Below are positions 25,491 through 25,893 of a DNA stretch of 64,000 bases, in pieces (position 1 is the stretch's first letter; the number at the start of each line of letters is the position of its first letter). The notes beneath the pieces are model-generated. The model did not search any database and had not been told where the DNA came from. It saw nothing but the letters and a program-made list of their open reading frames with translations. This DNA comes from Octopus sinensis. Taxonomy: Eukaryota. The DNA is taken from NCBI RefSeq assembly GCF_006345805.1, contig NC_043001.1, forward strand, positions 121,892,001 to 121,956,000, given 5' to 3'. The position numbers were made by a program, and so were the translations under genes.

Positions 25491-25893
25491 AGGCGTAGGA
25501 GTGGCTGTGTGGTAGGTGGCTTGCTTACGAACCGCATGGTTCCTGGTTCGGTCCCGCTGTGTGGTACCTTGGGTGGGTGTCTTCTACTGTGGCCTCGGGC
25601 CGACCAGGGCCTTGAGAGTGAGTTTGGTAGATAGAAACTGAAAAGAAGCCCGTCGTATATATGTATATATACATGTGTATGTGTGTATCTGTGTTTGTCC
25701 CCCCCCCCCAACATCGCTTGACAACCGATGCTGGTGTGTTTATGTCCCCGTAACTTAGCGGTTCGGCAAAAGAGACCGATAGAATAAGTACTAGGCTTAC
25801 AAAGAATAAATCCTGGGGTCGATTTGCTCGACTAAAGGCGGTATCCCAGCATGGCCACAGTCAAATGACTGAAACAAGTAAAAGAGTAAAGAG
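25491..25893 (+). mobile_element. SINE family A, A>G hypermutated 5' half
   Basis: Aligns to the 62445 copy and others; about 12 A>G changes in 25515-25622, while the 3' half is near consensus. Confidence 0.92.

Follow-up and report, generated by a model that had tools for sequence, protein, structure and literature searches.

A SINE copy with a dense A>G tract, probably written into germ-line DNA from ADAR-edited RNA

The window analysed here, a stretch of 64,000 nucleotides, carries on its forward strand a full-length SINE copy, the parts of which are listed in Table 1 and which is called the focal SINE below. The genome screened for relatives comprised 2.72 Gb in 13,516 contigs, and the size of the SINE family was extrapolated to about 260,000-280,000 halves from sample stretches set at even distances, 400 kb in all. 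Neither ARAGORN nor Rfam called a tRNA in the head of the focal SINE, where the A and B boxes were recognised by eye only. The copy has the unit length, the tail, the unique flanks and the target-site duplication (of only 6 bp) of an element inserted by target-primed reverse transcription. A genome search found each flank in one place only, and the idea that the SINE arrived as a passenger of a longer retrocopy was rejected because neither flank has a paralogue. When 30 open reading frames of the window were scanned for a host gene and its strand, only pieces of LINE reverse transcriptase were found. At 38860-40637 on the forward strand of the window lies part of a LINE in which a reverse-transcriptase and a zinc-binding domain are present; this fragment may be kin of the mobilising partner.

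The tRNA-derived SINE families of octopus include OK and OR1. A further one, OR2, is described by Ohshima and Okada (1994, as cited in PMC4758252). Like these three, the family studied here has a head with boxes that look Pol III-like to the eye, a high copy number and an octopus-sized genome as its host.

Table 1. Features of the focal SINE and of its surroundings (positions in the window)
Feature	Position	Strand	Remark
Full-length SINE copy: head, central dinucleotide microsatellite, 3' body, short repeated tail	25491..25894	+	
5' half with Pol III A-box-like and B-box-like motifs	25491..25657	+	by-eye reading
Central microsatellite and C run	25658..25709	+	insertion site for other SINE copies
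3' half	25710..25883	+	97% identity to family majority; A>G 0/55
A>G tract	25515..25622	+	11 clear changes up to 25608; 25622 ambiguous
6-bp target-site duplication, left copy	25486..25491	+	last base doubles as SINE base 1
6-bp target-site duplication, right copy	25895..25900	+	abuts tail directly
Nearest inverted family copy, 3.6 kb off	29532..29942	-	T>C: 5' half 3, 3' half 1; no reciprocal editing

The focal SINE was scored against the majority sequence of the best 29 other copies in the genome. The initial annotation had reported sense-strand A>G changes at 12 positions of the 5' half, and all of them were recovered: G replaces the family A at 25515, 25518, 25534, 25550, 25556, 25575, 25576, 25589, 25591, 25607, 25608 and 25622, which accounts for 12 of 22 adenines of the family sequence between 25501 and 25625 and, within 25515-25608, for 11 of 19. 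The last position is doubtful as it adjoins a G>A. The count of about six other substitutions likewise agreed with the new comparison (25544, 25560, 25565, 25574, 25615 and 25621 in 25501-25625), as did the neighbour counts, with a 3' G beside six changed adenines and no change at the three adenines clearly preceded by G (25530, 25603 and 25617). The 3' half is free of the bias, as had been claimed (5' against 3' half, P=4e-6). In the whole 5' half A>G was scored at 12/36 sites and T>C at 0/40 (P=4e-5); G>A occurs there twice, and no sense-strand G>A cluster of the APOBEC type is present. The highest A>G count among 85 other 5' halves, taken from 664 kb of genome DNA, was five. Taken by itself, the focal SINE shows no significant neighbour bias (P=0.26 for the 5' G and P=0.16 for the 3' G when 25622 is included).

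After a Bonferroni correction over 280,000 copies, 2 halves and 12 types of change, the genome-wide chance of the focal burst was 9e-5 at the rate of young copies (0.017) and 0.3 at the rate of copies of all ages (0.037). The focal SINE is young, its non-A divergence of 8/130 sites falling in the lower quartile, and only because of this youth is the burst convincing when taken alone. The all-ages figure would fit an origin of the G's in a stepwise subfamily, in retained CpG sites or in the chance tail of a family of 280,000 copies. Such an origin would also be in line with three focal changes that make CpG, and with four related 3'-half fragments (L137, L139, L141 and L146) that have four G's in common, no more. 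These fragments share many other changes too; they are a small old group and were not scored as independent events.

However, the focal SINE is without a sibling. In the subfamily test called for by the initial annotation no other copy matched the focal combinations of G's. Among the 40 candidates, out of 5,113, that were scored, the closest copy is 88% identical. Three motifs requiring three or four of the focal G's matched the focal SINE only, and the majority versions of these motifs gave about 30,000 matches. The largest overlap with another element amounts to 7/12 focal G's and 0/8 of the other focal changes, and the focal G's are not found as diagnostic bases in several copies, as those of a stepwise subfamily would be. 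At the three sites where the focal changes create CpG, the decay product TpG was seen 0, 1 and 0 times in 62 unbiased copies; these counts are unlike those of true CpG sites, and an ancestral CpG was rejected there. As the neighbour rule and the twin pairs described below are also left unexplained by subfamily, CpG or chance, this origin is largely refuted and is considered very improbable.

Sequencing runs were used to see if the G's are present in DNA. Run X1 gave an exact 86-nt contig over 25520-25605 with 0 differences, which carries seven focal G's and has a depth of 67, against 59 in the unique flank (the single-copy depth); the kind of this run was guessed as DNA, and it may be the source of the assembly itself. 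The junction between flank and SINE is present in all four further runs (X2, X3, X5 and X6). Run X6 belongs to another sample and study and shows 3 flank differences in 133 bp. It contains an exact 39-nt piece that spans 25515 and 25518, and a 68-nt piece (25519-25586) with 3 differences from the focal SINE, 9 from the family majority and 6 from L004, a family copy 44 kb downstream on the same strand. No other locus in the genome lies within 3 differences of the 68-nt piece. The X6 pieces likely represent the orthologue of the focal SINE with at least 2 of 5 G's. A long G-bearing piece was absent from the records covered in runs X2, X3 and X5 (76%, 98% at depth 6, and 80%), and the longer X2 pieces match L004; since these runs are partly covered or shallow, the absence is a caution and not a result. 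The initial annotation had asked for the G's to be confirmed in genomic DNA, and their presence in DNA contigs is borne out by a probable DNA run (X1) and a likely second individual (X6).

An artefact of assembly or sequencing, such as RNA reads in polishing, would be compatible with the guessed kind of X1 and with the raw reads of X22 and X23, which do not cover the tract in the 3% examined. However, the contig is exact at unique-flank depth, matching pieces occur in a second sample, and edited copies sit mostly on chromosome-scale contigs, so that an artefact appears extremely improbable.

At 25544-25560 the focal SINE and L004 have four derived bases in common within 17 bp. This tract likely reflects a short gene conversion, in either direction, and since 25550 and 25556 both sit in it, these two focal G's may derive from conversion. 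The change at 25550 also alters the B-box-like GGTTCA, as the initial annotation pointed out, where it may have a functional effect.

Motif searches of the genome, with T>C as the control for clustered changes, gave 40, 23, 3, 1 and 2 matches for A>G motifs and 2, 0 and 0 for T>C motifs, so that A>G clusters outnumber T>C clusters as the initial annotation had anticipated. The search with 3 matches includes the focal SINE and the one with 2 matches an element already known, and both T>C matches are copies edited on the other strand. After merging of matches within one element, four A>G motif searches (3, 1, 40 and 23) left 62 non-focal elements for scoring. At least 8 A>G changes, motif sites counted, were present in 35/62 of these. 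Outside the motifs A>G was found at 275/3426 sites (8.0%), compared to 88/3357 (2.6%) for T>C and a background of 95/5485. P<0.001 was reached on outside-motif sites alone by 12/53 other elements (the first 53 scored), and about half of the motif matches show few or no changes outside the motif. Two further edited copies were found among 10 other loci, and L195, from the A>G motif search with 2 matches, has A>G 5/36. The strand bias is 2-3 fold (about 3e-3 sense vs 1.4e-3 antisense) after a crude correction for motif sensitivity and copy number, which rests on baselines of only 12, 4 and 3 matches with an inexact T>C baseline.

A duplex over the 5' half had been proposed for the edited transcript. 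The editing itself is supported by these data, but the limit to the 5' half proved to be a trait of the focal SINE and not a rule of the family. In 20 elements with both halves the tract was found in the 5' half only (6), in the 3' half only (5), in both (7) or mixed (2). As 3'-only and two-half tracts are equally common, a fold-back over the 5' half was rejected as a general rule and kept as one route. In edited elements the A>G density peaks near the middle, where the peaks are partly produced by the search motifs, and drops to a low 16/302 in the 50 bases closest to the 3' end, a distribution that would suit a need for the tail bound by the reverse transcriptase to remain unedited or unpaired.

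Two unit-length elements with different flanks, L098 (C4) and L099 (C6), have nearly all of about 26 A>G changes and other variants in common. They likely descend from an edited source element, of which no third member was found among the 10 loci examined.

Neighbour bases were counted within the tracts, leaving out the focal SINE, L099, motif sites and three polymorphic sites. The share of changed adenines depends strongly on the 5' neighbour, with 59/134 (0.44) after U, 73/195 (0.37) after A, 26/148 (0.18) after C and 5/109 (0.05) after G (P=4e-11); the depletion after G is to be compared with 158/477 after the other bases. On the 3' side 70/156 (0.45) were changed before G, against 0.22 before A, 0.23 before C and 0.18 before U (non-G 93/430, P=7e-8). 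Background copies are flat with respect to neighbour bases. The tract pattern agrees with the 5' rule of ADAR, by which a 5' G is disfavoured, as given in the available text of PMC5625713 and PMC2873906. The 3' G preference of ADAR that the initial annotation had assumed did not hold up equally well, as the preference is weaker in published octopus RNA: PMC5625713, in the part available, gives a weak 3' G preference with 20-25% of hyper-edited sites, compared to a share of 43% here, raw shares and per-site rates being not directly comparable. The Pfam domain A_deamin has 17 matches at several loci of this genome, a count that takes ADAR, ADAT and ADAD together.

For two edited copies an unedited twin could be identified. 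The first, L171 (C22), is a 2.2-kb copy of a locus on C2. Compared to the C2 locus, the SINE in L171 shows A>G at 0/20 adenines in positions 1-116, at 9/15 in 117-165 and at 30/49 in the 3' half, that is at 39/64 from SINE position 117 on, whereas the flanks show 1/261 and 6/179. An inverted SINE is located 2.4 kb downstream of the C2 locus. The second twin concerns one of the pair of T>C copies, a SINE that lies in antisense orientation inside a LINE at L175. Its SINE head has T>C 16/39 and 17/40 in the comparisons with L197 and L198, compared to 13/740 and 9/729 in the flank, and these two siblings carry the same SINE unedited. In both cases the changes in a long RNA would have been limited to the stretch in which a repeat could find a pairing partner, and the altered form would then have reached a new locus. 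The twin pairs are the strongest support for editing before copying, at the L171 and L175 loci and not at the focal one. Edited copies with unedited twins, together with dozens of bursts, indicate that ADAR-edited RNA was most likely copied into inherited DNA repeatedly.

The structure of the twin loci was also recorded. The retrocopied locus (L171:4117-6360 on G000 C22; L180/L184 on G000 C2) holds a hAT-like MITE, read from its ends, its SINE is fused to a copy of U6 snRNA (Rfam, E=2e-24), and the unit terminates in the trinucleotide tail of another element. The first 200 bp of the retrocopy are a SINE piece in antisense orientation, which likewise bears editing on the same strand and has two rare variants in common with the parent's own SINE. 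L175:3061-5636 and the siblings L197, L198 and L199 form a LINE lineage with a SINE antisense in the 5' region; this passenger is edited in one member and unedited in two, and one sibling is without the SINE.

The twins also bear on mutagenesis at the DNA level, by deamination in an RNA:DNA hybrid or by an error-prone polymerase or reverse transcriptase, that would produce the changes without an edited RNA. Antisense-edited copies occur, polymerase eta has a preference for an A that follows A or T, and in vitro ADAR is able to act on the DNA of hybrids, all of which would suit such a process. However, the changes in the twins end at the SINE and the 1-2 kb of co-copied flank are clean, which fits a duplex of repeat with repeat in RNA and not a hybrid over the whole length. 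The sole antisense case with known context is the passenger in an opposite-strand LINE, and a change rate of 50-60% far exceeds polymerase error. Mutagenesis at the DNA level is therefore regarded as having only a slight probability.

For the focal SINE, hyper-editing of an RNA by ADAR followed by germ-line retrotransposition is probable, with good confidence on the basis of sequence comparison. This is the reading of the initial annotation, and it gains support from the population of edited copies, the neighbour rule, the twin pairs and the uniqueness of the focal changes. What we infer for the focal SINE is the enzyme, the order of editing and insertion, and the partner strand. A Pol III transcript would start at the first base of the SINE, and its 5' half would pair with an antisense SINE stretch, probably within the same transcript. 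ADAR would alter about half of the paired adenines in the long duplex. A LINE reverse transcriptase would then prime at the unedited tail and would likely read inosine as G, and the copy would enter germ-line DNA.

A source with editing in the 5' half only could be a SINE nested in reverse in the microsatellite of another SINE, from which a Pol III transcript that reads through would pair with itself along the 5' half only. Such an arrangement exists at L015:1496-2322. In the predicted fold of L015 the 5' half alone is paired, in a stem of about 170 bp that leaves the 3' half as the loop, and no run of four T's occurs before the end of the stem. An inverted piece within 400 bp downstream was seen in 0/37 full units of the unbiased sample, and the search for a duplex partner or source locus of the focal SINE found none. 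Self-folding of the SINE head was rejected as the duplex, as it gives short, broken stems only, too weak for 50% editing. Editing mostly requires intramolecular duplexes, according to the available text of PMC13445718.

The main rival is a conversion in place, in which the SINE inserted unedited and was later overwritten by a reverse-transcribed transcript of the same locus, edited while paired with an inverted copy nearby; this would still be a route of ADAR changes into DNA. Three of the four further runs show the junction without a G-bearing contig, tracts may cover an element in part, the focal SINE has an inverted copy at a distance of 3.6 kb, and the short tract in common with L004 points to conversion at this element. 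An inverted piece was present in the 3-kb locus of 16/35 edited elements and of 13/62 unbiased 5' halves, counts that are defined differently, and the strand bias is modest at 2-3 fold on very small baselines. On the other hand, the X6 pieces suggest that the G's are as old as the split between the samples, the inverted neighbour is unedited, and both twin cases are new insertions alongside unedited twins. Conversion in place is therefore held to be unlikely, though it is weighed before the other alternatives.

Beyond the focal SINE, we lean on balance towards a wider view in which ADAR acts as a standing germ-line mutator. Edited SINEs, LINEs with a SINE passenger and host RNAs of kilobase length would be copied into DNA, at a rate of between about 1 in 300 and 1 in 7,000 SINE insertions, edited copies could become sources (L098/L099), and the genome would preserve past RNA editing in the germ line as a fossil record that can be dated.

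Related records in DNA have been described for other deaminases and elements. APOBEC has left 'DNA-edited' LTR retrotransposons that became fixed in the genomes of vertebrates (Knisbacher and Levanon, PMC4866542). As in the present case, strand-biased bursts of a motif-bound deaminase are fixed in single retroelement copies and are found by comparing a copy with its family. However, the APOBEC changes arise by C-to-U on cDNA, giving G>A in LTR elements, whereas here A>G from an enzyme acting on RNA is seen in a SINE of an invertebrate-type genome. Invertebrates served as the negative control in that study, the main text of which, as available, is without the word ADAR (PMC4866542). ADAR-type A>G clusters occur in proviruses of BLV and, by citation, of HTLV-2 and STLV-3 (PMC8025556, available text). 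There too an edited RNA is reverse transcribed and integrated as DNA with a short A>G cluster, but these are rare events of somatic viral infection, while the copies described here are endogenous, inherited and non-LTR, were formed dozens of times and carry host flanks.

ADAR hyper-editing of repeat-derived dsRNA is highest in octopus (PMC5625713, available text). The dense A>G clusters in repeats and the strong depletion of 5' G are alike, but the octopus data compare RNA to unchanged DNA, whereas the changes here are fixed in DNA and show a stronger 3' G preference. ADAR1 and ADAR2 restrict human LINE-1 largely independently of editing, and the sequenced L1 RNA was without A-to-I in the part of PMC8677026 available. 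In both systems ADAR encounters the RNA of a non-LTR retroelement; here the editing is recorded in inserted copies.

A search of the openly full-text-searchable literature found no description of SINE copies that were edited by ADAR and became fixed in a genome. The available texts of PMC8096273, PMC9148063, PMC5974252, PMC2873906 and PMC4384741 contain no genome-fixed ADAR record, and a term search of PMC3197674 found no mention of reintegration. Deaminase bursts in retroelements (APOBEC) and ADAR-type clusters in proviruses are already known.

RNA editing is generally taken as non-heritable. Here it appears to reach the genome via retrotransposition, in the animal group with the most editing on record. 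Edited SINE copies would read out past germ-line ADAR activity and its neighbour preference directly, and through them repeats could diverge abruptly, and subfamilies arise, by a new route. As edited copies fixed in DNA mimic edited reads, they call for caution in programs that call editing sites, and the dating of repeats needs the same caution.

Two further edited elements have an unusual arrangement. In L096 (L177:5110-6287, on an unplaced contig) the edited 5' half leads into four 3' halves that are identical and alternate in orientation. The array may be a palindromic amplification or an artefact of reads or assembly, and because of the latter it was kept out of the structural evidence. 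L152 (L176:4839-5179) is a full copy edited on the antisense strand, with T>C 16/40 and 9/33. A search with its flank matched only another common repeat, and the copy stands head to head with an unedited one 214 bp off.
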